Assembly (NCBI GenBank): GCA_000146045.2
Contig: BK006948.2
Location: 576,001 to 640,000, forward strand
Reading direction: 5' to 3'
Source: TPA_inf: Saccharomyces
Lineage: Eukaryota
Length of the DNA: 64,000 nt
Shown piece by piece: positions 5,813 to 30,263 of this stretch. Each line of letters starts with the position of its first letter. Within the stretch, counting starts at the first letter, position 1. A program made the translations under genes and the position numbers. The notes below the pieces were generated by a model. That model worked only from the letters and a program-made list of their open reading frames with translations, did not search any database and was not told the origin of the DNA.

Positions 5813-7681
5813 TTATTGCTTCCCCTTATAGATGTACTGATAATCGTAAACCTCGTCAACAAGATTGCTATTCCTCTTCCACGAAGTTATTTCGTCCAAA
5901 ATATCATCCAAGTTAAATAATCTAACGGTTGGATATATACCTTGGATTCTCGGCAAGCCTATACCAGCGGACCCACCGTAACATAACCACATCTCATTTT
6001 TTGACTGTAAGCAACAGTCATTATTATGTTCATGTCCGCAACTGACACCCTTTATATTCCAAAGACTCAGGATATCAAGGAAGCTTTTGTAATGTTTGCC
6101 ATTGATCGTCATTGAAACTTGTCCTCTAGACCTTGGCGTATCTACTGTTAAGGTAGACCTCTCATTATACTGCCCAATAATAGGAAATAAACCATGAGGC
6201 CTATATTCCGATAATGGAAAATATTGAAATGCCAAGCCAAAGTCTATTTTCCCAATCAGGTCGTTATAATCTTGTAGGAAATTATTGACGGGCGCAAATG
6301 AATCAAAGACGAAAAATAAAGCCTCTGATGGGTTTGTTTCGTCTTCGGTATCAATGTCTCTTTCCAAAAGAGTATTCTTCGTGAGCTTCTTTTTAAATGA
6401 GACTTCTATGGCCATATGACCCTCTTCTGATGCAACGTTGTTAAATGTGTAAGGTAAATTCCTGATAAAGTCTCTAATTTGTGCCGATGTGGCCAAATTG
6501 GATTCGTCAGAAACACCCAATGAAATTGCGTAGGGTATTTTATTAGAAATCATTGGTTGGACAACTTTCATAATGCACGTTTGATAGTCGATAGTATTAT
6601 GTGAGTCTAACAAATCACCTGTGATCACAACTAAATCAGGGTTTTCTGATGCGAGTACCCTATCAATAAAATTTACTGTTTTTATTTCATTGATTACGGT
6701 CATGCTATTATCCGTACATTTGAAATGAAAATCAGTTATTTGGAGAATTTTGAATGATCTTTGTCCCCTCGAAAATTGTATATGGGGAGATGTTATTTTG
6801 TAATCTGCATCGACTTGGATATTAATGTCTTTGCTGGGTGTTCTCAAAGAACCTAGCAATCCATTAGAAAATTTGTGATGATGGTTTTTGGTTTCAAGCT
6901 TTCTTGTAATTGATATGGGCAGAGAAGGTATGTTATTTCTATGAAATTCATGGATAACTTCTTTCCAAGAAGGCCTCGATTCAATAAACGATGATCCTAG
7001 ATATATTTCCAAATTAGTTATAGGAGCGTCATTATCATCATCATTAAGGATATACTTACACCATATGCCGCTCCCCTTGTATACCCACTCCTCACCGAAC
7101 ACAGCTATGTTATCTGTATCAACGGATATGCCGAAAAGCAGCTTCCACCATGACGAAGTAGGCTTTTCTCGTAGATACACATGATTGTGAAAGACAGAAC
7201 TGTCGCTCGATTTCACCAACTTATTAATGTCTCTCAGCACTTGTAGGGGTATTAGTGCTGAGTCCCTTGCTATGGCTAGTTCTTTTATTGTGTTTTTTGG
7301 ATTACTTTGGAAATCTTTCAGATGAACATATAAGTAACTGTTGTAGAATGGTCCAGACTGAAGTGAATACAATGTCTCTACAGTAATATTCTTAGAAACT
7401 CTGGTCCACAGAATGCTGTTTTTGTCTTTGATCTTTTTAGCAGTATTGGAGGGGTGTAATTTCGGGGCATACAAAGAACTACATTGCCTGTACCAATGGT
7501 AGCACCGCAGGATTTGAATATCGTCTATCATTCCGCCATGATATTCTGCTACATTATGATCCATTAATACATTTTTTGCATGTAGCTTTAGTGAATCTCT
7601 CGATAAATACAATGAAGTAATGCATAATATAAAAAGTATTCTCCTTAAAAAATTAAATCTTCTTCTATAATGTAATCTCAT
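5813..7681 (-). CDS. SIA1: Calcineurin-like metallophosphoesterase-domain protein, 622 aa
   Basis: Metallophosphatase signatures (…[13 protein letters not shown]…, …[10 protein letters not shown]…). N-terminal hydrophobic segment. Size and position match YOR137C. Confidence 0.8.
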
Positions 7682-10980: not shown

Positions 10981-13281
10981 ATGAGTGAAGAGGAAACGGT
11001 CTCAGCCCCAGCTCCAGCTTCTACACCGGCCCCGGCTGGAACCGATGTAGGTAGTGGTGGAGCAGCAGCTGGAATAGCTAATGCTGGTGCTGAAGGCGGC
11101 GACGGTGCCGAGGATGTTAAGAAACATGGGTCGAAGATGCTAGTGGGGCCCAGGCCGCCACAAAATGCGATATTCATCCATAAGCTATACCAGATTCTGG
11201 AGGACGAATCGCTACACGACTTGATATGGTGGACCCCTTCGGGCTTATCCTTCATGATTAAGCCTGTGGAACGGTTTAGTAAGGCTTTGGCTACATATTT
11301 CAAGCATACTAATATCACGAGCTTTGTAAGACAGTTGAACATTTACGGCTTTCACAAGGTGTCGCATGATCATAGCAGCAACGACGCTAATAGTGGCGAC
11401 GACGCCAATACTAATGATGACAGCAATACTCACGATGATAATAGTGGCAACAAAAACAGTAGTGGCGACGAAAATACCGGTGGCGGTGTCCAAGAAAAGG
11501 AGAAAAGTAACCCCACTAAAATCTGGGAATTTAAGCATAGTTCTGGTATTTTCAAGAAAGGTGACATTGAGGGACTCAAACACATTAAGAGAAGAGCTTC
11601 TTCCCGTAATAACTCCTCAATTAACAGTCGAAAGAATTCTAGTAATCAAAACTACGATATAGATTCCGGTGCAAGAGTAAGACCCTCTTCGATTCAAGAC
11701 CCGTCCACCAGTTCCAATTCCTTTGGTAATTTCGTTCCGCAAATTCCGGGCGCCAATAACTCTATCCCCGAGTACTTTAATAACTCTCATGTAACTTACG
11801 AAAACGCAAACCATGCCCCGCTGGAATCCAATAACCCGGAAATGCAAGAGCAAAACAGACCTCCGAACTTTCAAGATGAAACACTGAAACATTTGAAAGA
11901 AATAAATTTTGATATGGTTAAGATTATAGAGTCTATGCAGCATTTCATATCTTTGCAACACAGTTTTTGTTCACAGAGTTTCACCTTCAAGAATGTGAGC
12001 AAGAAAAAATCGGAAAATATCGTGAAGGATCACCAAAAGCAACTTCAGGCATTCGAAAGCGATATGTTAACTTTCAAACAGCACGTCATGTCGAGGGCCC
12101 ACCGTACAATAGATTCTCTTTGTGCTGTAAATGCTGCCGCTACCGCTGCCTCTGTCGCCCCTGCACCCGCGCCCACATCCACATCTGCATATGCACCCAA
12201 ATCTCAGTATGAGATGATGGTTCCTCCAGGGAACCAGTATGTCCCGCAGAAATCTTCCTCGACCACGAACATCCCTTCGAGATTCAACACGGCTTCAGTG
12301 CCGCCCTCGCAACTTTTTGTACAATACCAACCGCAGTCGCAACAACATGTGACTTATGCGAAGCAACCGGCACATGTACCAAACTTTATCAATCAGCCGA
12401 TACCCATCCAACAACTACCTCCACAATATGCAGACACTTTTAGCACTCCACAAATGATGCACAATCCTTTTGCCTCGAAAAATAACAACAAACCGGGCAA
12501 CACGAAGAGGACCAATAGTGTTCTCATGGACCCGCTGACTCCCGCAGCGAGTGTTGGAGTTCAGGGTCCACTAAACTATCCTATCATGAATATTAATCCT
12601 TCTGTCCGTGACTACAACAAGCCTGTCCCTCAAAATATGGCTCCGAGTCCAATATATCCTATTAATGAACCAACAACGAGATTGTATTCTCAACCAAAAA
12701 TGAGAAGTCTCGGGTCTACAAGCTCTTTGCCCAACGATAGAAGAAACAGTCCTCTGAAGCTGACACCGAGATCATCGTTGAATGAAGATAGTCTGTATCC
12801 CAAACCTAGAAACTCTCTCAAATCCAGTATTTCGGGCACGTCTTTATCCTCCTCTTTTACACTAGTTGCCAACAATCCAGCCCCAATTCGGTACTCTCAG
12901 CAGGGATTGCTTCGCTCATTAAACAAAGCTGCTAATTGTGCTCCAGATTCGGTAACTCCATTAGACTCGTCTGTCTTGACGGGCCCTCCTCCAAAAAACA
13001 TGGACAATCTTCCTGCTGTTTCTTCAAATTTAATAAACTCCCCCATGAACGTCGAGCACAGCTCAAGCCTATCACAAGCAGAACCTGCACCACAAATAGA
13101 ACTACCGCAGCCATCTTTGCCCACAACGAGCACCACTAAGAATACTGGCGAGGCTGACAATAGTAAGAGAAAAGGGAGCGGTGTTTATTCTTTACTGAAT
13201 CAAGAGGATAGCAGCACGTCCAGTGCTGATCCTAAAACTGAAGATAAGGCCGCTCCGGCACTCAAAAAGGTTAAGATGTGA
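10981..13281 (+). CDS. SFL1: HSF-type DNA-binding transcriptional repressor/activator, 766 aa
   Basis: Heat-shock-factor-type DNA-binding domain (…FIHKLYQILEDESLHDLIWWTPSGLSFMIKPVERFSKALATYFKHTNITSFVRQLNIYGFHKV…). The rest of the protein is long, low-complexity and S/N/P/Q-rich. Confidence 0.85.
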   Translation: MSEEETVSAPAPASTPAPAGTDVGSGGAAAGIANAGAEGGDGAEDVKKHGSKMLVGPRPPQNAIFIHKLYQILEDESLHDLIWWTPSGLSFMIKPVERFSKALATYFKHTNITSFVRQLNIYGFHKVSHDHSSNDANSGDDANTNDDSNTHDDNSGNKNSSGDENTGGGVQEKEKSNPTKIWEFKHSSGIFKKGDIEGLKHIKRRASSRNNSSINSRKNSSNQNYDIDSGARVRPSSIQDPSTSSNSFGNFVPQIPGANNSIPEYFNNSHVTYENANHAPLESNNPEMQEQNRPPNFQDETLKHLKEINFDMVKIIESMQHFISLQHSFCSQSFTFKNVSKKKSENIVKDHQKQLQAFESDMLTFKQHVMSRAHRTIDSLCAVNAAATAASVAPAPAPTSTSAYAPKSQYEMMVPPGNQYVPQKSSSTTNIPSRFNTASVPPSQLFVQYQPQSQQHVTYAKQPAHVPNFINQPIPIQQLPPQYADTFSTPQMMHNPFASKNNNKPGNTKRTNSVLMDPLTPAASVGVQGPLNYPIMNINPSVRDYNKPVPQNMAPSPIYPINEPTTRLYSQPKMRSLGSTSSLPNDRRNSPLKLTPRSSLNEDSLYPKPRNSLKSSISGTSLSSSFTLVANNPAPIRYSQQGLLRSLNKAANCAPDSVTPLDSSVLTGPPPKNMDNLPAVSSNLINSPMNVEHSSSLSQAEPAPQIELPQPSLPTTSTTKNTGEADNSKRKGSGVYSLLNQEDSSTSSADPKTEDKAAPALKKVKM

Positions 13282-13941
13282 TCTTTGCCTTTTTAATCTC
13301 TAGTTGTCTAAAAGTTCAAAGCACCTCACTGTATGTTTATTACCTTTGTTCCAATTACTTTTGTTTCAATTACTTTTGTTTCATTTCATTTTAGGTATCC
13401 CAACGGGTAATCATTGTTATTTATTTTATTCACTTTTTTTTCTTTTCCTCCTGATCCTTGTGATTATAACTATATTTTTACCAACTCCGGTAGTTGTTTT
13501 ATTAAGTTTTCATCACACTAAATTGTATTTTCCACTTTCATTTCCACCTTCCTTTCCCCTACCTCCCTTCAATTCGTATCATAATACCGCCCGTTCTTTC
13601 TAGTATATCACAGAATAGCTACGGGGTATTGTCTCATAAACAGAAAAATGCACCTTTCGATAAACTTCCTGTACAATAATTCTATAAGTATATATGTATG
13701 TTTGCTATTAAACAACCATCACAAAAAGACACCTTATTCTTTATGGACGCCTTCAAGTTGTGCTCCTATTCTGTAGTTGTTGCACCATGCATGTTACCAT
13801 CATAGCCGTCTAAGCGGGACTATTTCCTTTTGTTAACACCTATACTAATTAAACAGCTGGGGAAATTTTTATTCTATGCTTCGTTGATGTCTGCAAAGAC
13901 CTTTCAGAAAAAAAGATAACAAAAACTTCCATATGCATATC

Positions 13942-16587
13942 CTAGTACGTGAAAATACATTTATATTGTAAGATTCTACTCCCGTGAACATCCCAATCGC
14001 TGTTCGTAATAAACAGTTCTTCGACAAGTTTAATTTGCGCCAAAACGCTCGCACCTTTCCAAATTATTAGAGCGGGATTCATATCACGTGGTGGTGGGAT
14101 AATGCTCACTGGAAAAATGTGTTCGTTACCATTTTGGTGCTCAATATTTTGATGTTGCTCTTCCAGCTCTTCTACAATCTTTTCCTTGATTTGGGCTTGC
14201 AAAATTTGCTTGTTTTCATCTTCAGTCTTGTCAGGGGCATTTACATAATGACCTTCTAAATCTTTGATTTCTTTAGTCAGTTTTTTGTAAAATTGCGGGA
14301 ACGATGCCGAACTCAACAAAGAGGGCCTCCAAATGTTGATTCTATCAGTTAAAATAAAATCTAAAGCAGGTATTTTGGAACTGCCACCAACGATAAGAAT
14401 ATTCGAATAAAATGAGTTCATTCTTGTTACATCAGCTGTTATAGATGCATTGGCGATACTTTGAACGATAGCCTTTTCTAAAGGTGCAAAATTTTCCTTT
14501 AGAGTATTTCCATAGTTTTCAGGCTTATCCTGGAGTTGATCAATTATGTTATGGGCATCTAATATTCTGTTTAAGATCTTGAGATCGTCATTCAAATCAC
14601 AATACAAATTTCCCTCTTTGCTTTCGAATTGTGACAAGGAGTTCCAGTCATTCAATTCGTTTGTAAAGAGGTCACGAGATTCAGGCAACTGAAATTCTAG
14701 GCTGGAATTCTTGTGAGAGGAAGTTCGTATCAACTTGAAAATTTGTGGGAAAAATAAGGCCAATGGTGCTAACATAACTTCGTCGAACAGCTTGAATTCG
14801 TACTTTTCAGTCGGCTGATTGGGTGAGCGGTTCATAAAATTGTACAACTGAACGGCAACATCAGCATCTTGGAAAGTGGTGAAATTTTTCTTCAGCCGTT
14901 CAGCAAGAAGCCATCCATGTTTAGAATCGATCTTCCAATCCTGTAGGGGGAAATCACTTTGTAGCAAAAATAGAGCGAAGAGCCTTGTAATATCATCTCC
15001 ACCATAATCTAACGTAATTGCACTATGTTCCAAAACTGTTCCTTCATCAACACAGGCGATCCTGGTTTCAGCAGCGCCTATATTTACTACGCATGTGGAG
15101 GTACTGATCCCGGCACCGTAACAAGTCGCTAATGATTCTTGTATAATAGCGACTGCTTGAAATTGTAACTCGGTGAGTAGAACTCTAATGAACGTCTCTA
15201 CGTGACTTTTCTTGAATATGTCTGGTATCACCAACACGACCTTGTACTGATTAAATTTGGTAGGCTTAACGTTTAAAGTCTCTGAGTTAAGTGCATGCTC
15301 CAAAAGCTTGGTAACGTCTGAGATTAATTCTGCCAACGATTTATAATATGGTGACTTGACATTAAAAGAGCCACCTCTGAAAGGCTTTCTAATAACAAAT
15401 TTTTCGTCCACGCACCTCAATGCATCTGAACCATAGTATAATTTTGAGTCATCAAATATCCATTCTATAGGAGATGGATCATTTTTCTCTGAAATAATCT
15501 CAGGTTTGGAATTTTCATTGAAAGATACTACCTGTTCGTGAGCATTACCTGGTACCTTTCTTTTATAATACCTCATACGTTCTCTAAAATTCTTTTCCAT
15601 CTCCGACTTTATGTTGTTAAACTCTTCTGACTGTTCTCTTTGAAGGCAAACGTTTTCAACATGTTCACTATTTTCAAGATCCAGCCATTTTTTAGGTACC
15701 GCTACACAATTTGGAACTACGACAGGATGGTCATCTTTGGGAAATCCTATCTTTATAGAATTTGATCCAGGATGTATCACGATAGTTGCTGTTGGATCAT
15801 TTAGATCTATCTCGTCATTAAGTGGTGCTGCACTCGCTTCTGAGTGGGGCAAACTCTTTAAATCTATAACATCTGGTGTGTTGGTACTAGATATTTGGCT
15901 AGTGTTGTTATTTCTCAAAAATTTTCTATCTCTAAGTGCAAATATTTGATCGTCTTTTTTCAGATAATCTGATGAGTAGTTTTTTTGGTTGATTAACATT
16001 AAAGGTTGGAACAGGCCAGTGGCAGGTAAAGTAGTTGTCTCCACTTTCTCAATGCCAATTTTTTTCAACGTCTTGGCAAATTCTTCAGCAGCTTTAATAC
16101 GTCCTAGTCTCCTCTTCTCCAAAAGATGTAGCGGGACTTTCTTCCCGGGAGGTGCTTTTGCGGGATCTAGCTTCGGATATTTCTTATAACGTTTACTAGT
16201 CTGCACAGCAGGTGGTGCCCTCTTATCTCTAGAGCTCCCTAATTCATTTTCATTTTCGTTGGCATTATCATTATCATTTTCGTCCTCATTGTCAACATCA
16301 TTGTCGTCTTCGTCTTCATCTTCGTCTTCCCCTTCTTCATCTTCATCTTCTTCGTCTGCAACGTCTCTTGGGTCAACAGAAAGACCTGTTACACTTCTGG
16401 GTGTCTCAGATCCAACTACGTTATCGACACTATCGTCTGACTCATTCTCCGCATTTTCTTGATCCGCCTGGCTGCTTAAAGGTACGCTATTTTCTTCTTC
16501 CAGTTCATCCTCATCGTCATCATCCTCTAACGGAATATCAATGGGTTCCTCATAAATAATACTGGATTCTGCTTCTTCTTGCGACAT
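13942..16587 (-). CDS. ARP8: Actin-related protein 8 (INO80 complex subunit), 881 aa
   Basis: Actin-fold segments (…TIVIHPGSNSIKIGF…, …VVLVIPDIF…, …ILIVGGSSKIPAL…). Long acidic D/E-rich N-terminal extension. The 881 aa length matches. Confidence 0.85.
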   Translation of the reverse strand: MSQEEAESSIIYEEPIDIPLEDDDDEDELEEENSVPLSSQADQENAENESDDSVDNVVGSETPRSVTGLSVDPRDVADEEDEDEEGEDEDEDEDDNDVDNEDENDNDNANENENELGSSRDKRAPPAVQTSKRYKKYPKLDPAKAPPGKKVPLHLLEKRRLGRIKAAEEFAKTLKKIGIEKVETTTLPATGLFQPLMLINQKNYSSDYLKKDDQIFALRDRKFLRNNNTSQISSTNTPDVIDLKSLPHSEASAAPLNDEIDLNDPTATIVIHPGSNSIKIGFPKDDHPVVVPNCVAVPKKWLDLENSEHVENVCLQREQSEEFNNIKSEMEKNFRERMRYYKRKVPGNAHEQVVSFNENSKPEIISEKNDPSPIEWIFDDSKLYYGSDALRCVDEKFVIRKPFRGGSFNVKSPYYKSLAELISDVTKLLEHALNSETLNVKPTKFNQYKVVLVIPDIFKKSHVETFIRVLLTELQFQAVAIIQESLATCYGAGISTSTCVVNIGAAETRIACVDEGTVLEHSAITLDYGGDDITRLFALFLLQSDFPLQDWKIDSKHGWLLAERLKKNFTTFQDADVAVQLYNFMNRSPNQPTEKYEFKLFDEVMLAPLALFFPQIFKLIRTSSHKNSSLEFQLPESRDLFTNELNDWNSLSQFESKEGNLYCDLNDDLKILNRILDAHNIIDQLQDKPENYGNTLKENFAPLEKAIVQSIANASITADVTRMNSFYSNILIVGGSSKIPALDFILTDRINIWRPSLLSSASFPQFYKKLTKEIKDLEGHYVNAPDKTEDENKQILQAQIKEKIVEELEEQHQNIEHQNGNEHIFPVSIIPPPRDMNPALIIWKGASVLAQIKLVEELFITNSDWDVHGSRILQYKCIFTY

Positions 16588-17056
16588 GTTAGGTGCGATT
16601 GTATCCCTGTATTTATGTACTATTGACTAGTAATTTACCTGAAAGTGTTTGCTACTTCGTGGGCGTTCATCATCTCCATTTATTCATATTGCCATTCTCA
16701 AATAAGTCATCTTGCACGGCCCAACCAGCGGCTGGATAACGGATCTACCCCAACCTCGGACCCAAAGTTGCTGCTATAAAAACAGAAACAAAAAAGGCGT
16801 TTCTCGAGACTGATATCCAGATGGTAATAGAGCCCTTAAGTGCTTTGCAATTGTCAATTAAGTATCCTTGTTCGAGAGTTGTTCACAGCACACTGCGTAT
16901 ATATAGGCTTACCACAGTTGGATTTAATCAAGCGATATAAAAGCTGGAAGGAGACAAGTTTCCCCTAATTGTTGTTCTGTTTGTTACTTACCACTCTATA
17001 TACGTTCGATTTCATAGAAAATTTCTTTTGCAGACCATTTATTCTTCAGTTTGATA

Positions 17057-18046
17057 ATGTTAAGATCTACCGTTTCAAAAGCTTCTCTCAAAATTTGTCG
17101 TCACTTTCACAGAGAATCTATTCCTTACGATAAGACGATCAAAAATTTGCTGCTTCCCAAGGACACCAAGGTGATCTTTCAGGGGTTCACAGGTAAACAA
17201 GGTACTTTTCATGCCAGCATCTCTCAAGAATATGGTACAAATGTTGTGGGTGGTACGAACCCAAAAAAGGCGGGTCAAACACATTTAGGCCAACCTGTCT
17301 TTGCCTCTGTGAAGGACGCGATTAAGGAGACTGGAGCCACTGCCAGTGCCATCTTTGTTCCTCCACCGATCGCAGCTGCTGCCATTAAAGAATCTATTGA
17401 AGCTGAAATTCCGTTAGCTGTATGTATCACTGAAGGTATTCCTCAACATGACATGTTATACATTGCAGAAATGTTGCAGACACAAGATAAAACAAGATTA
17501 GTTGGGCCCAACTGCCCTGGTATCATTAACCCAGCAACAAAGGTAAGAATTGGTATCCAGCCCCCAAAAATTTTTCAAGCTGGTAAAATCGGTATTATTT
17601 CCAGATCGGGAACTTTGACATACGAAGCTGTTCAGCAAACTACAAAAACTGACCTTGGTCAATCACTGGTTATTGGTATGGGTGGTGATGCTTTTCCCGG
17701 TACTGATTTTATTGACGCCTTGAAATTATTTCTAGAAGATGAAACTACAGAAGGTATTATTATGTTAGGTGAAATAGGTGGTAAGGCCGAAATCGAAGCT
17801 GCTCAATTTCTCAAAGAATACAACTTTAGCAGGAGTAAGCCGATGCCGGTGGCATCTTTCATCGCAGGAACTGTTGCTGGTCAAATGAAAGGTGTTAGAA
17901 TGGGTCACTCCGGTGCAATTGTAGAAGGATCTGGAACTGATGCAGAATCCAAAAAACAAGCTTTGAGAGATGTTGGTGTTGCCGTCGTTGAATCTCCAGG
18001 TTACTTAGGTCAAGCTTTACTGGATCAATTTGCCAAATTTAAATGA
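17057..18046 (+). CDS. LSC1: Succinyl-CoA ligase alpha subunit, mitochondrial, 329 aa
   Basis: CoA-binding/ligase alpha motifs (…[10 protein letters not shown]…, …SRSGTLTYE…, …GHSGAIV…). The track ORF begins at 17051 (MIMLRS…). I recall the native protein starting MLRSTVSK at the second ATG, so the start is placed at 17057. Confidence 0.85.
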
Positions 18047-18353
18047 TTATATTAGGAAGAGAATGAACTGCTTTCAAAAGAGGAAGACTTCTATGTCTCG
18101 ATTATTGCTTAGACAAGTATGGAGCTGACATCCGTTTTCTTTTCAGAGCTTTTACTCAACATTCTATGTTAATTTTTCCCTTTGTATATATTCATTTATC
18201 CTTATAAATTCTACTAAAAATCTTTTAATAGTGTTTGTATTTAATGTTCTTCTTAACAAGGGTATACATAAAGGTTGATTAAAGCTTAATAATTGAAATG
18301 GAAAAAAAAATAACAAAACGTCTGAATTTCCTAGTCTGTTTTGCAAAAACAGA

Positions 18354-18425
18354 TGCGCAAGCCGGGAATCGAACCCGGGCCTCATGCTTGGGAAGCATAA
18401 ATTCTAACCACTGAACCACTTGCGC
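18354..18425 (-). tRNA. tRNA-Gly, anticodon CCC
   Basis: The minus-strand sequence folds as a cloverleaf: GCGCAAGTGGTTCAGTGGTTAGAATTTATGCTTCCCAAGCATGAGGCCCGGGTTCGATTCCCGGCTTGCGCA. The acceptor stem GCGCAAG/CTTGCGC has 7 bp. The A box is TGGTTCAGTGG and the B box GGTTCGATTCC. The anticodon loop TTCCCAA gives CCC. A T5 Pol III terminator follows immediately downstream (plus-strand aaaaa at 18345-18349). Confidence 0.9.
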
Positions 18426-18511
18426 GTTTCAATCAATTTGGGAAGACTCAGCACGTTATATACTATTAATGAAAAATTTCCTTCTTAGTAATGACACTGA
18501 TAAATAGGTAA

Positions 18512-18820
18512 GTGTTGGAATTAAAATCAACTATCGTCTAACAACTAGTAGTCACACTACCAATATATTATCATACACGGTGTTAGACGATGACATAAGA
18601 TATGAGAAACTGTCATCGAAGTTAGACGAAGCTGAAATGCAAGGATTGATAACGTAATAGGATAATAAAACATATAGAACAGAAGGAGAAATAATCATAG
18701 TATTATTATGTAGAAATATAGATTCCTTTTTGAGGACTCCTATATCCTCGAGGAGAACTACACATAATATTATATATAACCTTTGCCAAAAAAAGGAATG
18801 CCAAAAATTATCAAACTATT
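18512..18820 (+). repeat. Diverged solo Ty1/Ty2-type delta LTR, 3'-truncated by the Ty1 insertion
   Basis: It begins tgttggaattaaaatcaactatcgtctaacaac… and is collinear with the Ty1 LTR, with many substitutions. It runs directly into the 5' LTR of the full-length element and lies ~90 bp upstream of the tRNA-Gly 5' end. Confidence 0.7.
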
Positions 18821-19152
18821 TGTTGGAATAAAAATCCACTATCGTCTATCAACTAATAGTTATATTATCAATATATTATCATATACGGTGTTAAGATGAT
18901 GACATAAGTTATGAGAAGCTGTCATCGAAGTTAGAGGAAGCTGAAGTGCAAGGATTGATAATGTAATAGGATAATGAAACATATAAAACGGAATGAGGAA
19001 TAATCGTAATATTAGTATGTAGAAATATAGATTCCATTTTGAGGATTCCTATATCCTCGAGGAGAACTTCTAGTATATTCTGTATACCTAATATTATAGC
19101 CTTTATCAACAATGGAATCCCAACAATTATCTAATTACCCACATATATCTCA
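18821..19152 (+). repeat. Ty1 5' LTR (delta), 332 bp
   Basis: tgttggaataaaaatccactatcgtc … cccacatatatctca, ending immediately before the PBS tggtagcgcc. The TYA ATG at 19112 lies inside the LTR, as expected for Ty1. Confidence 0.9.
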
Positions 19153-20434
19153 TGGTAGCGCCTGTGCTTCGGTTACTTCTAAGGAAGTCCACACAAATCA
19201 AGATCCGTTAGACGTTTCAGCTTCCAAAATTCAAGAATATGATAAGGCTTCCACTAAGGCTAACTCTCAACAGACAACAACACCTGCTTCATCAGCTGTT
19301 CCAGAGAACCCCCATCATGCCTCTCCTCAACCTGCTTCAGTACCACCTCCACAGAATGGGCCGTACCCACAGCAGTGCATGATGACCCAAAACCAAGCCA
19401 ATCCATCTGGTTGGTCATTTTACGGACACCCATCTATGATTCCGTATACACCTTATCAAATGTCGCCTATGTACTTTCCACCTGGGCCACAATCACAGTT
19501 TCCGCAGTATCCATCATCAGTTGGAACGCCTCTGAGCACTCCATCACCTGAGTCAGGTAATACATTTACTGATTCATCCTCAGCGGACTCTGATATGACA
19601 TCCACTAAAAAATATGTCAGACCACCACCAATGTTAACCTCACCTAATGACTTTCCAAATTGGGTTAAAACATACATCAAATTTTTACAAAACTCGAATC
19701 TCGGTGGTATTATTCCGACAGTAAACGGAAAACCCGTACGTCCGATCACTGATGATGAACTCACCTTCTTGTATAACACTTTTCAAATATTTGCTCCCTC
19801 TCAATTCCTACCTACCTGGGTCAAAGACATCCTATCCGTTGATTATACGGATATCATGAAAATTCTTTCCAAAAGTATTGAAAAAATGCAATCTGATACC
19901 CAAGAGGCAAACGACATTGTGACCCTGGCAAATTTGCAATATAATGGCAGTACACCTGCAGATGCATTTGAAACAAAAGTCACAAACATTATCGACAGAC
20001 TGAACAATAATGGCATTCATATCAATAACAAGGTCGCATGTCAATTAATTATGAGAGGTCTATCTGGCGAATATAAATTTTTACGCTACACACGTCATCG
20101 ACATCTAAATATGACAGTCGCTGAACTGTTCTTAGATATCCATGCTATTTATGAAGAACAACAGGGATCGAGAAACAGCAAACCTAATTACAGGAGAAAT
20201 CCGAGTGATGAGAAGAATGATTCTCGCAGCTATACGAATACAACCAAACCCAAAGTTATAGCTCGGAATCCTCAAAAAACAAATAATTCGAAATCGAAAA
20301 CAGCCAGGGCTCACAATGTATCCACATCTAATAACTCTCCCAGCACGGACAACGATTCCATCAGTAAATCAACTACTGAACCGATTCAATTGAACAATAA
20401 GCACGACCTTCATCTTAGGCCAGAAACTTACTGA
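19112..20434 (+). CDS. TYA: Ty1 TYA (Gag capsid protein), 440 aa
   Basis: [48 protein letters not shown]… is a typical Ty1 Gag. The stop at 20432-20434 is just downstream of the frameshift heptamer. Confidence 0.95.
19153..19162 (+). promoter_or_regulatory. Ty1 minus-strand primer-binding site (complementary to the initiator tRNA-Met 3' end)
   Basis: tggtagcgcc directly after the 5' LTR. Confidence 0.85.
20414..20420 (+). promoter_or_regulatory. Ty1 +1 programmed ribosomal frameshift heptamer CUU-AGG-C
   Basis: cttaggc in the TYA frame, 14 nt before the TYA stop. The +1 frame (frame 0) is open from here to 24380. Confidence 0.9.
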
Positions 20435-23400
20435 ATCTACAGTAAATCATACTAATCATTCTGATGATGAACTCCCTGGACACCTCCTTCTCGATTCAGG
20501 AGCATCACGAACCCTTATAAGATCTGCTCATCACATACACTCAGCATCATCTAATCCTGACATAAACGTAGTTGATGCTCAAAAAAGAAATATACCAATT
20601 AACGCTATTGGTGACCTACAATTTCACTTCCAGGACAACACCAAAACATCAATAAAGGTATTGCACACTCCTAACATAGCCTATGACTTACTCAGTTTGA
20701 ATGAATTGGCTGCAGTAGATATCACAGCATGCTTTACCAAAAACGTCTTAGAACGGTCTGACGGCACTGTACTTGCACCTATCGTAAAATATGGAGACTT
20801 TTACTGGGTATCTAAAAAGTACTTGCTTCCATCAAATATCTCCGTACCCACCATCAATAATGTCCATACAAGTGAAAGTACACGCAAATATCCTTATCCT
20901 TTCATTCATCGAATGCTTGCGCATGCCAATGCACAGACAATTCGATACTCACTTAAAAATAACACCATCACGTATTTTAACGAATCAGATGTCGACTGGT
21001 CTAGTGCTATTGACTATCAATGTCCTGATTGTTTAATCGGCAAAAGCACCAAACACAGACATATCAAAGGTTCACGACTAAAATACCAAAATTCATACGA
21101 ACCCTTTCAATACCTACATACTGACATATTTGGTCCAGTTCACAACCTACCAAAAAGTGCACCATCCTATTTCATCTCATTTACTGATGAGACAACAAAA
21201 TTCCGTTGGGTTTATCCATTACACGACCGTCGCGAGGACTCTATCCTCGATGTTTTTACTACGATACTAGCTTTTATTAAAAACCAGTTTCAGGCCAGTG
21301 TCTTAGTTATACAAATGGACCGTGGTTCTGAGTATACTAACAGAACTCTCCATAAATTCCTTGAAAAAAATGGTATAACTCCATGCTATACAACCACAGC
21401 GGATTCCCGAGCACATGGAGTCGCTGAACGGCTGAACCGTACCTTATTAGATGACTGCCGTACTCAACTGCAATGTAGTGGTTTACCGAACCATTTATGG
21501 TTCTCTGCAATCGAATTTTCTACTATTGTGAGAAATTCACTAGCTTCACCTAAAAGCAAAAAATCTGCAAGACAACATGCTGGCTTGGCAGGACTTGATA
21601 TCAGTACTTTGTTACCTTTCGGTCAACCTGTTATCGTCAATGATCACAACCCTAACTCCAAAATACATCCTCGTGGCATCCCAGGCTACGCTCTACATCC
21701 GTCTCGAAACTCTTATGGATATATCATCTATCTTCCATCCTTAAAGAAGACAGTAGATACAACTAACTATGTTATTCTTCAGGGCAAGGAATCCAGATTA
21801 GATCAATTCAATTACGACGCACTCACTTTCGATGAAGACTTAAACCGTTTAACTGCTTCATATCATTCGTTCATTGCGTCAAATGAGATCCAAGAATCCA
21901 ATGATCTTAACATAGAATCTGACCATGACTTCCAATCCGACATTGAACTACATCCTGAGCAACCGAGAAATGTCCTTTCAAAAGCTGTGAGTCCAACCGA
22001 TTCCACACCTCCGTCAACTCATACTGAAGATTCGAAACGTGTTTCTAAAACCAATATTCGCGCACCCAGAGAAGTTGACCCCAACATATCTGAATCTAAT
22101 ATTCTTCCATCAAAGAAGAGATCTAGCACCCCCCAAATTTCCAATATCGAGAGTACCGGTTCGGGTGGTATGCATAAATTAAATGTTCCTTTACTTGCTC
22201 CCATGTCCCAATCTAACACACATGAGTCGTCGCACGCCAGTAAATCTAAAGATTTCAGACACTCAGACTCGTACAGTGAAAATGAGACTAATCATACAAA
22301 CGTACCAATATCCAGTACGGGTGGTACCAACAACAAAACTGTTCCGCAGATAAGTGACCAAGAGACTGAGAAAAGGATTATACACCGTTCACCTTCAATC
22401 GATGCTTCTCCACCGGAAAATAATTCATCGCACAATATTGTTCCTATCAAAACGCCAACTACTGTTTCTGAACAGAATACCGAGGAATCTATCATCGCTG
22501 ATCTCCCACTCCCTGATCTACCTCCAGAATCTCCTACCGAATTCCCTGACCCATTTAAAGAACTCCCACCGATAAATTCTCGTCAAACTAATTCCAGTTT
22601 GGGTGGTATTGGTGACTCTAATGCCTATACTACTATCAACAGTAAGAAAAGATCATTAGAAGATAATGAAACTGAAATTAAGGTATCACGAGACACATGG
22701 AATACTAAGAATATGCGTAGTTTAGAACCTCCGAGATCGAAGAAACGAATTCACCTGATTGCAGCTGTAAAAGCAGTAAAATCAATCAAACCAATACGAA
22801 CAACCTTACGATACGATGAGGCAATCACCTATAATAAAGATATTAAAGAAAAAGAAAAATATATCGAGGCATACCACAAAGAAGTCAATCAACTGTTGAA
22901 GATGAAAACTTGGGACACTGACAAATATTATGACAGAAAAGAAATAGACCCTAAAAGAGTAATAAATTCAATGTTTATCTTCAACAGGAAACGTGACGGT
23001 ACTCATAAAGCTAGATTTGTTGCAAGAGGTGATATTCAGCATCCTGACACTTACGACTCAGGCATGCAATCCAATACCGTACATCACTATGCATTAATGA
23101 CATCCCTGTCACTTGCATTAGACAATAACTACTATATTACACAATTAGACATATCTTCGGCATATTTGTATGCAGACATCAAAGAAGAATTATACATAAG
23201 ACCTCCACCACATTTAGGAATGAATGATAAGTTGATACGTTTGAAGAAATCACTTTATGGATTGAAACAAAGTGGAGCGAACTGGTACGAAACTATCAAA
23301 TCATACCTGATAAAACAGTGTGGTATGGAAGAAGTTCGTGGATGGTCATGCGTATTTAAGAATAGTCAAGTAACAATTTGCTTATTCGTTGATGATATGA

Positions 23401-24380
23401 TATTGTTCAGCAAGGACTTAAATTCGAATAAAAGAATTATAGCAAAACTCAAGATGCAATACGATACCAAGATTATAAATCTAGGTGAAAGCGATGATGA
23501 AATTCAATACGACATCCTTGGCTTAGAAATCAAATATCAAAGAGGTAAATACATGAAATTAGGTATGGAAAACTCATTAACTGAGAAAATACCCAAATTA
23601 AACGTACCTTTGAATCCAAACGGAAGAAAACTTGGTGCCCCAGGCCAACCAGGTCTCTATATAAACCAGCAAGAACTAGAGCTAGAAGAAGATGATTACA
23701 AAATGAAGGTACATGAAATGCAAAAGCTGATAGGTCTAGCATCATATGTTGGATATAAATTTAGATTTGACCTATTATACTACATCAACACACTTGCACA
23801 ACATATACTATTTCCGTCCAAGCAAGTGTTAGATATGACATATGAATTGATACAGTTCATATGGAATACGAGAGATAAGCAATTAATATGGCACAAAAGC
23901 AAACCTGTTAAGCCAACAAATAAATTAGTTGTTATAAGCGATGCCTCGTATGGTAACCAACCGTATTATAAATCACAAATTGGCAACATATATTTACTTA
24001 ATGGAAAAGTAATTGGAGGAAAGTCCACCAAGGCTTCATTAACATGTACTTCAACTACGGAAGCAGAAATACACGCAATAAGTGAATCTGTCCCATTATT
24101 AAATAATCTAAGTTACCTGATACAAGAACTCGACAAGAAACCAATTACCAAAGGATTACTAACCGACAGTAAATCTACAATCAGTATAATTATATCCAAT
24201 AATGAAGAGAAATTTAGAAACAGATTTTTTGGTACTAAAGCAATGAGACTGAGAGATGAAGTATCAGGAAATCATCTGCACGTATGCTATATCGAAACCA
24301 AAAAGAATATTGCAGACGTAATGACCAAACCTCTTCCGATAAAAACATTCAAACTATTAACAAACAAATGGATTCATTAG
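20418..24380 (+). CDS. TYB: Ty1 TYB (Pol: protease, integrase, reverse transcriptase, RNase H). It is expressed as a TYA-TYB fusion after a +1 frameshift at 20414-20420.
   Basis: Protease DSGAS at 20493. Integrase zinc motif H-X3-H…C-X2-C ([10 protein letters not shown]…CPDCLIGK) and a D,D,E catalytic triad. RT motif FVDDM. RNase H motifs …ISDASYG… and TEAEIHA. The track ORF at 20661 is only the first in-frame Met of this frame. Confidence 0.9.
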
Positions 24381-24393
24381 ATCTATTACATTA

Positions 24394-24402
24394 TGGGTGG
24401 TA
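24394..24402 (+). promoter_or_regulatory. Ty1 polypurine tract (plus-strand primer)
   Basis: tgggtggta immediately 5' of the 3' LTR. Confidence 0.8.
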
Positions 24403-24734
24403 TGTTGGAATAAAAATCCACTATCGTCTATCAACTAATAGTTATATTATCAATATATTATCATATACGGTGTTAAGATGATGACATAAGTTATGAGAAG
24501 CTGTCATCGAAGTTAGAGGAAGCTGAAGTGCAAGGATTGATAATGTAATAGGATAATGAAACATATAAAACGGAATGAGGAATAATCGTAATATTAGTAT
24601 GTAGAAATATAGATTCCATTTTGAGGATTCCTATATCCTCGAGGAGAACTTCTAGTATATTCTGTATACCTAATATTATAGCCTTTATCAACAATGGAAT
24701 CCCAACAATTATCTAATTACCCACATATATCTCA
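24403..24734 (+). repeat. Ty1 3' LTR (delta), 332 bp, apparently identical to the 5' LTR
   Basis: I read the same sequence as 18821-19152 base for base. The track also shows identical 67-aa antisense ORFs at 18909-19112 and 24491-24694. Confidence 0.9.
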
Positions 24735-25382
24735 CTATTCGTCAAGTTCTTAAATCCATATTTTAATATTCATCAGTACTATCCTCTACTCTTTAGTTAC
24801 CAACACATTACTAATTCTTGCGCTCACCCTATCAGTGAATTTGATTACTTATATATAATTTTTAGTTATTGTTTGACAAAACAACCGTAAGAAATTTTTA
24901 TTTTGAATTTCATCAATTGGTGACAACTCATAAAAAGAAAGCTAATGCTCAAATGCATCGTTGTACTAACTGCCATAGTGTAAAATCCGTTTAAGCAGAT
25001 CGAGTAAAACAGCTGTTGTCGATCTTATACTTTTCTATGGAAAACACTATTTAAGCGCTATGTGCCCTTACTTTAGAATGATGACTTTACTGTAATATGT
25101 CAACATTTTTATTCTCAGCAAATCTTTGGCAGCGTATTTACATAGTCGTCTTTTTTATAATATTAATGACACAAATATAAGGCTTAATTATTAATATAAT
25201 GCAGTCTGTAAATGGGTGCAAACACTTTATTTTGTCATATGTTCAAATAGAATTCATGCCGTTTCCATCATAAACTCCTGATTCTCACCGATTACTGATA
25301 GTTTAGCTTCAGAGGTCGACATCCCATAGATGATGACGAAAGCAAGATTACGGTCGAATAGTTAAAGAACACATGCCTTACT

Positions 25383-29346: not shown

Positions 29347-30171
29347 TTAGTAGCGTTCTTTTAATCTAGATGCAACGGTACGTAAGTTCCCATAAACTTT
29401 ACCTGGAGGGGAACCCAAAATTAAACTAACCACAGATTCTCTTGCCATTCTGATGTGGGTGAACCCGCCCAAAATGTGGATTTTAGAGTCAGCTAAGACA
29501 ATTCTTGTTCTTGTAGCGTTTTCAATCGCAAATTTCGTTTTACCGTCTTTACCGGCAATACGACCGATGGCTCTCGACAAATGGTCACCTGTTAGAGTCT
29601 TGACATCTTTGACTTCAAAAGTCTCAATATATAAATCATCTAGCCTCAATAGTGCGATAGAATCGTCAAGATCAAACCCTAAGGTAAAGGCTTTGATAAA
29701 ATCGGCCCCTTTTTGCAACGCACCAGGGTCTGTGGTAAATTTAGGATTCGTTCTTAGTTCTACGGATTTGGTCTTTAAATTCATTCTGACTTGCAGCTTC
29801 AAGTGCTCGACCAAAGGAGGATAAATTTTTGTCCAACTGTTCCTCAAGGGTGTCATTCTGTGTGGTGGAACCATGATCTTTCTCGATTCAAATTTTATTT
29901 TGTTACCCTGTGTTTTGCTAGCTGAAGTGAAGCGAGGTTTCCCCTGGTCATCAACCACTACGGTCTTAGATTCGTGCGTTTTCCGGCTACCTTCTTCGCC
30001 CTCTACCTCTTCTTTTGCTGTGTTATTGTCGGAATCATCTAACAGAACGTCGTCATCATCGTCCTCATCGATGCTTTCGGTATTATTTATTCCTATAATT
30101 CTACTACTGCCCCCATCTTGTCCACTTACAGGTGTCACAGTAGCCTTTTTCAAAGCAGTAGGCGCAACCAT
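29347..30171 (-). CDS. PNO1: KH-domain pre-40S ribosome biogenesis factor (partner of Nob1), 274 aa
   Basis: C-terminal KH domain (…TGDHLSRAIGRIAGKDGKTKFAIENATRTRIVLADSKIHILGGFTHIRMARESVVSLILGSPPGKVYGNLR…). The native start is MVAPTALKK, the second Met of the 280-aa track ORF. Confidence 0.85.
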   Translation of the reverse strand: MVAPTALKKATVTPVSGQDGGSSRIIGINNTESIDEDDDDDVLLDDSDNNTAKEEVEGEEGSRKTHESKTVVVDDQGKPRFTSASKTQGNKIKFESRKIMVPPHRMTPLRNSWTKIYPPLVEHLKLQVRMNLKTKSVELRTNPKFTTDPGALQKGADFIKAFTLGFDLDDSIALLRLDDLYIETFEVKDVKTLTGDHLSRAIGRIAGKDGKTKFAIENATRTRIVLADSKIHILGGFTHIRMARESVVSLILGSPPGKVYGNLRTVASRLKERY

Positions 30172-30263
30172 AATGTAGTTTATTTTCACTTCAAGTCTTT
30201 TTCTTAACTAAACAGAAGAATATTGAAAACTGCCTATTATTGATGCAATATGTATCTTTCATT

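Follow-up and report, generated by a model that had tools for sequence, protein, structure and literature searches.

A full-length Ty1 inside an older solo delta upstream of tG(CCC)O on chromosome XV of Saccharomyces cerevisiae, with other Ty insertions at the same locus across strains

Upstream of the tRNA-Gly(CCC) gene tG(CCC)O on chromosome XV of Saccharomyces cerevisiae lie an old solo long terminal repeat (LTR) of the delta type, YORWdelta12, and a full-length Ty1 retrotransposon, YORWTy1-2. We analyzed this cluster in a 64,000-nucleotide stretch of the S288C reference genome (GenBank GCA_000146045.2, contig BK006948.2, positions 576,001 to 640,000), called the window below and numbered from its own first letter. 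The record is almost certainly that of two distinct integrations of Ty1 type upstream of tG(CCC)O, an ancient one that survives as YORWdelta12 and a later one, YORWTy1-2, that lies inside it. The cluster is the annotated tG(CCC)O/YORWdelta12/YORWTy1-2 of the reference genome and is as such already known and ordinary; a 2012 paper reported its age structure and polymorphism, and the mechanism of targeting has been solved to atomic detail. Beyond this published knowledge, our analysis adds only the detail of nesting in the delta annotation, and it has little significance beyond confirming a recognizable Ty1 cluster at a locus that stands in the S288C reference annotation.

YORWTy1-2, also known as Ty1-OR or YOR142W-A/B, is a 5,914-bp element on the plus strand at 18821-24734. 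It is bracketed by a 5-bp target-site duplication, CTATT, with its left copy at 18816-18820 and its right copy at 24735-24739, and such a 5-bp match has a chance probability of ~0.0013. The left copy forms the last 5 nt of the 5' part of YORWdelta12 (18513-18820, plus strand), which spans delta positions 1-308. This old delta opens with TGTTGGAAT at 18513, upstream of the tRNA gene (toward higher coordinates), and is colinear with positions 1-317 of the 332-bp young LTR. Altogether, 321 nt of it align end to end with the 332-bp LTRs, with internal deletions of ~11 nt. Past the right copy of the duplication the sequence continues the interrupted delta: the last 13 nt of YORWdelta12, CGTCAAGTTCTTA (24740-24752, plus strand), were split off by the Ty1, and a multiple alignment with the LTRs of other strains places them in register, ending at the same column as full deltas. 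Against delta ends they match CACCAATTTCTCA at 9/13 positions and CCCCCATTTCTCA at 8/13, and they close in TTCTTA where other deltas close in TTCTCA; elsewhere in the window, a score of 9/13 against those termini is reached by just 0.4% of 13-mers. An earlier note on this DNA, made from its letters alone, had proposed the CTATT duplication and a Ty1 inside the 3' end of the delta, and had staked the latter beforehand on the sequence after 24739 continuing the delta. Both proposals stand, the duplication being present and perfect and the Ty1 having landed 13 nt from the delta's 3' end, and all of the note's coordinates were correct.

The published annotation can be read differently. In the REannotate table of Carr, Bensasson, and Bergman (2012; PMC3511429 File S2), YORWdelta12 (chrXV 594514-594813, plus strand) is a solo LTR of an inactive clade labeled 'st' and YORWTy1-2 is labeled 'u'; the legend gives 's or st' for solo and 'i or u' for full-length elements, and taking 'st' as truncated and 'u' as un-nested is our interpretation. 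Nor does the table list YORWdelta12 as a span enclosing YORWTy1-2, unlike YBLWdelta6 around YBLWTy2-1. Such entries would suit an old delta that had already lost its 3' end when the Ty1 integrated into unrelated DNA beside it, as would the shortness of the tail and its match of only 6/13 to the window's own LTR end. That history is nevertheless very unlikely, since the old delta is colinear with full LTRs up to and through CTATT and the next 13 nt end where full deltas end, with the 9/13 match and low background given above and the terminal motif TTCT(T/C)A. The published delta end at 594813 falls 8 nt short of the Ty1 (18813-18820 are omitted, CTATT included), so that 21 nt at the end of the delta go unannotated, 13 of them beyond the Ty1. 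The insertion sits too near the LTR end (13 nt) for the automated annotation to have given the delta as a span around the Ty1. A small correction follows, in which YORWdelta12 is interrupted by the Ty1 and not truncated beside it; this is one of the two modest points of practical value in our analysis, and we give it, jointly with the reading of repeated integration set out below, about an even chance of holding.

We compared the locus with 30 other S. cerevisiae chromosome XV assemblies, fetched via three LSC1 protein variants and designated here by L numbers. The interval between LSC1 and THI80 holds only the old delta in 17 of the 30, and 24740-24752 is contiguous with 18820 in these empty-site assemblies. 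An empty site carrying only the solo delta, which the earlier note had suggested seeking in other strains, exists in exact form in L004 (GCA_000976005.2), where the sequence runs straight from 18820 into 24740, is 100% identical over 18047-18820 and 24740-25382, and contains one CTATT. This exact empty site proves that the Ty1 was inserted with duplication of 5 bp and excludes a route through recombination, in which a cDNA or genomic Ty1 would have entered by homologous recombination or gene conversion with the solo delta and not through integrase. The old delta does offer ~90% homology, and Ty1 cDNA is known to recombine with resident LTRs as a minor pathway. Such an event, however, would replace or hybridize the delta and leave no duplication, yet the old delta is complete, the two new LTRs match each other fully and not the delta, the duplication is perfect, and the empty allele has one CTATT. 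We regard recombination as extremely improbable, the duplication and the exact empty site having effectively refuted it. The delta and the 5' LTR also form two LTR-like sequences head to tail, 309 bp apart, as might a tandem-LTR product of one event or an assembly artifact of repeated LTRs. The probability of either is smaller still: the pair is only 89.5% identical (old delta versus young LTR, over the first 248 bp) and differs in its indels, the delta stands alone in 17 independent assemblies, and the published annotation has the same structure. The empty-site alleles refute both versions of this alternative.

The same comparison orders the two integrations. The old delta is present, whole or in part, in 30/30 assemblies, even in the diverged L010 with its flanks of only 94-96% identity. 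The S288C Ty1 at CTATT, by contrast, is found in 0/29 scorable assemblies; L027 was left out of this scoring, its insertion extending beyond the DNA compared. The two LTRs of the Ty1 match each other at 332/332 positions. Taken together, these data establish that the old delta came first and the Ty1 second, and so uphold the earlier claim that two insertions of different ages sit here in a readable order. They also agree with the pattern described by Carr et al. (PMC3511429), namely, fixation of solo LTRs on long branches and polymorphism of elements in the active clade, the locus combining a fixed old solo LTR with a polymorphic young element. In their File S2, YORWdelta12 is fixed in 20/20 scored strains, and YORWTy1-2 (chrXV 594822-600735, plus strand, TY1 full-length, active clade) is polymorphic, being scored present in 6 of 21 strains, namely, S288c, W303, DBVPG6040, UWOPS05_227_2, Y55, and Y9. 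Their coordinates equal window positions 18513-18812 and 18821-24734 with 576001 added, which puts the window at about chrXV 576,002-640,001 in sacCer2 numbering. The structural polymorphism between strains that had been predicted for this locus is thus seen both in the published fixed and polymorphic calls and in our assemblies, where 17/30 carry the delta only and 13/30 carry other insertions.

Several observations weigh against this scenario. The nesting rests on just 13 nt matching at 9/13, though their register is fixed. The five SGRP 'present' calls outside S288c are unreconciled with the 0/29 assemblies here; some of these low-coverage calls may be other insertions, a suspicion that we hold because many other insertions hit the same delta. 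YORWdelta12 itself has no 5-bp target duplication of its own, either at its junctions or at small offsets, and its flanks, GTAAG on the left (18508-18512) and AATCC on the right (24753-24757), are the same in all strains examined. The missing duplication suggests decay or a solo LTR derived from recombination between two different elements. Intra-element LTR-LTR recombination is accordingly only one possible origin of YORWdelta12, with an exchange between two neighboring elements equally possible.

In the history that we propose for the two integrations, an ancient element inserted 87 bp upstream of the tRNA gene and then collapsed to the solo LTR YORWdelta12, which has since become fixed in the species; published Ty1 biology points to LTR-LTR recombination as the route of collapse. 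Much later, and at a distance of 395 bp from the tRNA gene on its upstream side, Ty1 integrase placed a cDNA 13 nt from the 3' end of this solo LTR, with a staggered 5-bp cut giving rise to the CTATT duplication. We infer from published work on Ty1 (PMC10050235 and PMC7459421) that the site was chosen by tethering, with integrase held through the subunit AC40 to RNA polymerase III (Pol III) at an active tRNA gene and delivered to nucleosomal DNA upstream. By this account, tG(CCC)O would be the Pol III gene that attracts Ty1 integration, and the resident delta would merely be the DNA occupying the targeted stretch.

Ty1 integrates in the first nucleosomes, within ~1 kb upstream of Pol III genes, and avoids the first ~80 bp (PMC10050235). 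The Ty1 at 395 bp, the old delta at 87 bp, and the sites in other strains at 81 to ~420 bp upstream of tG(CCC)O all fit this published rule, and with it the Pol III-proximal preference that the locus had been said to illustrate. The spacer that separates the old delta from the 5' end of the tRNA gene (18426-18512, no strand assigned) measures 87 bp, close to the '~90 bp' first estimated, and agrees with the reported Ty1-free first ~80 bp upstream of tRNA genes (PMC10050235). The integrase targeting segment of YORWTy1-2, IN1 residues 612-623 (from Gag-Pol residue 1194; 22692-22727, plus strand), is intact: W614, K617, M619, S621, and L622, which have been shown to bind the Pol III subunit AC40 (PMC10050235), are all present between two KKR nuclear localization signals.

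The locus thus resembles known Pol III-targeted Ty1 integration in its ~1-kb range, its 5-bp duplication, its TD1 residues, and its many same-locus insertions; the tethering mechanism itself is carried over to this locus from PMC10050235 and PMC7459421. It is the same object as the published YORWTy1-2/YORWdelta12/tG(CCC)O of S288C, from which nothing substantive differs but the published delta end. One parallel among the nested Ty-in-LTR insertions elsewhere in S288C, YBLWTy2-1 inside YBLWdelta6, is likewise a young polymorphic full-length element interrupting an old fixed solo LTR; at YORWdelta12 the insertion lies very near the LTR end, at 13 nt.

Across strains, the ~420 bp upstream of tG(CCC)O are a very busy insertion hotspot, the second of the modest points of practical value. 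Other Ty insertions occur in 13/30 assemblies, and 11 of those 13 give 10 distinct clean 5-bp duplications within this ~420-bp region. In L024, a full-length, Ty2-like element duplicated AGGTA just outside the delta, 3-7 nt ahead of its start and 81-85 bp from the tRNA gene. Inside the old delta, solo LTRs are flanked by AAATC at positions 12-16 (L026), ACATA at 81-85 (L020), ATAAG at 83-87 (a second solo LTR in L020), TAGGA at 146-150 (L007), GAAAC at 155-159 (L001), and AAAAC at 164-168 (L028), and a solo LTR with a 64-nt LTR fragment is flanked by CATCG at 102-106 in both L006 and L009. A reverse-oriented full-length Ty1 in L008 also took ATAAG at 83-87, and a reverse-oriented, full-length, Ty2-like element in L016 took ATTTT 9-13 nt past the delta end. 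The full-length Ty1 of S288C, YORWTy1-2, took CTATT at 304-308, and in L003 a junction lies near delta position 77 with no clean duplication readable.

These events amount to at least 11 independent integrations among 31 haplotypes, 81 to ~420 bp upstream of tG(CCC)O, and across the compared haplotypes no integration lies nearer the tRNA gene than 81 bp. Measured upstream from the tRNA gene, the natural sites are at 81-85, 99-103, 168-174, 189-193, 233-255, 391-395, and ~417-421 bp. The identical ATAAG target was used twice independently, by the solo LTR of L020 and by the reverse full-length Ty1 of L008. So busy a hotspot marks the site as prone to structural variation and Ty-mediated rearrangement. 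Our confidence is evenly divided on whether the locus, with its at least 11 insertions, its shared ATAAG target, and the apparent loss in L010 described below, is a naturally occurring record of Ty elements integrating repeatedly at a single site. If it is, it would offer a population-scale readout of Ty1 target choice at single-nucleotide resolution.

Several alleles in the comparison have further peculiarities. The ACATA insertion of L020 lies 2 bp from the shared ATAAG target; the regions concerned are inter-region positions 540-1240 in L020 and 540-590 and 6715-6750 in L008. A forward Ty1 in L027 also abuts old-delta position 87, with its right side rearranged. At inter-region 574-969 of L006 and L009, one CATCG duplication surrounds a 64-nt 5' LTR fragment and, directly after it, an entire solo LTR sharing 99.7% identity with that of Ty1-OR. 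LTR-like pieces other than deltas are nested among the deltas of L003 (11470-11725 and 17700-18200, or inter-region 482-731 and 6703-7210), and similar non-delta sequence is nested among those of L027 from inter-region ~6438 onward. The non-delta pieces comprise 121 bp starting TGTTGGAACGAGAG and ~250 bp running from TGATAATTAGAGG to TTTAACA. Their sum, 371 bp, is presumably the length of a Ty4 tau LTR.

The L010 allele (GCA_903819195.2, LR813616.2, positions 11280-11900) carries a tRNA-Gly(CCC) sequence that lacks 8 nt at its start. Also gone are the 87-bp spacer and the first LTR base, with a junction that joins CCACTGAACC to GTTGGAAT, and ARAGORN finds no tRNA gene in 21 kb of L010. Two explanations are conceivable: loss of tG(CCC)O from a wild East Asian lineage through a Ty-associated deletion at an LTR junction, or an error of assembly.

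The anatomy of YORWTy1-2 is that of a complete, full-length Ty1, as had been proposed, and the element is young and apparently intact. Its 5' LTR (18821-19152, plus strand, 332 bp, TG to CA) and 3' LTR (24403-24734, plus strand, 332 bp) both run from TGTTGG to TCTCA. The primer-binding site TGGTAGCGCC (19153-19162, plus strand) directly follows the 5' LTR, and the polypurine tract TGGGTGGTA (24394-24402, plus strand) directly precedes the 3' LTR; the former is complementary in Ty1 to the 3' end of initiator tRNA-Met, and the function of the latter in Ty1 is established. The TYA (Gag) open reading frame (ORF), with its start codon within the 5' LTR, encodes 440 amino acids (19112-20434, plus strand), which match Pfam TYA at an E value of 1.6e-233. 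CTTAGGC at 20414-20420 (plus strand), the only copy in the element, is the +1 ribosomal frameshift site from TYA to TYB, and skipping A20417 opens a Gag-Pol of 1,755 amino acids.

The TYB (Pol) frame (20418-24380, plus strand) encodes protease, integrase, and reverse transcriptase/RNase H. A Pfam scan of Gag-Pol recovers TYA (E value of 2.9e-232), Pol_BBD of the protease region (residues 459-533), gag_pre-integrs (581-645), the integrase core rve (663-763), SH3_retrovirus (829-890), and the reverse transcriptase RVT_2 (1281-1489), and the motifs LLDSGAS and FVDDM are seen in Pol. Integrase precedes reverse transcriptase, the copia-type order. Together with the LTRs, the primer-binding site and polypurine tract, the frameshift, the Gag/Pol order, and the 5-bp duplication, a coding sequence of Ty1 and not of Ty2 makes the element a member of Ty1 (Pseudoviridae, Ty1/copia LTR retrotransposons), whose delta LTRs measure about 330-340 bp. 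In an exact-sequence look-up, Gag matches 'Transposon Ty1-OR Gag polyprotein', and Gag-Pol is identical to UniProt Q92393 / NP_058183.1, 'Transposon Ty1-OR Gag-Pol polyprotein'. At 90% identity, Gag clusters with the S288C elements Ty1-DR3, Ty1-ML1, and Ty1-BR, and Gag-Pol clusters with Ty1-JR1, Ty1-JR2, Ty1-GR2, and Ty1-ER1 of the same strain. A literature search for 'YORWTy1-2' and 'YOR142W-B' turned up incidental mentions only; a 2025 study of non-allelic recombination used YORWTy1-2 as a chromosome XV breakpoint.

The tRNA gene that anchors the cluster lies on the minus strand, as first noted, and is placed at 18354-18425 by both ARAGORN and Rfam (RF00005, 68.6 bits), which agree that it is the single tRNA gene in the window. 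Box A TGGTTCAGTGG and box B GGTTCGATTCC can be read off the sequence inside tG(CCC)O. A T5 run (18345-18349, minus strand), 4 nt past the tRNA 3' end, where the sequence reads GCA followed by TCTGTTTTTGC, is the Pol III terminator; T runs of this kind terminate Pol III. Rfam at its gathering threshold reports no structured RNA in the window besides the tRNA, and Tandem Repeats Finder reports nothing at the Ty1 locus.

The claim that this locus is the only mobile DNA in 64 kb is supported by two null results. BLAST searches of the window (word size 7) with the LTR and the Ty1 interior as queries gave chance hits only (E value of at least 0.01, at most 42 nt), and the published reannotation lists no further Ty from chrXV 571808 to 664004 (PMC3511429); sigma, tau, and omega LTRs were not searched. 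The neighboring proteins are exact matches to S288C Arp8p, Lsc1p, Thi80p, and Elg1p, in the order ARP8, LSC1, Ty1 locus, THI80, and ELG1. The next ORF after ELG1 (29347-30189, 280 amino acids) is putatively PNO1.

Two minor observations concern these neighboring genes. Imperfect tandem repeats with periods of 6, 15, and 24 at 16244-16357, in the 5' part of ARP8, encode an acidic Asp/Glu/Asn-rich N-terminal stretch and are ordinary low-complexity coding sequence. In L009 (GCA_030035895.1, positions 12810-17599), THI80 is split into products of 148 and 149 amino acids and a single 1,046-amino-acid product replaces the ELG1 and PNO1 calls, anomalies that are probably frameshifts or consensus errors.

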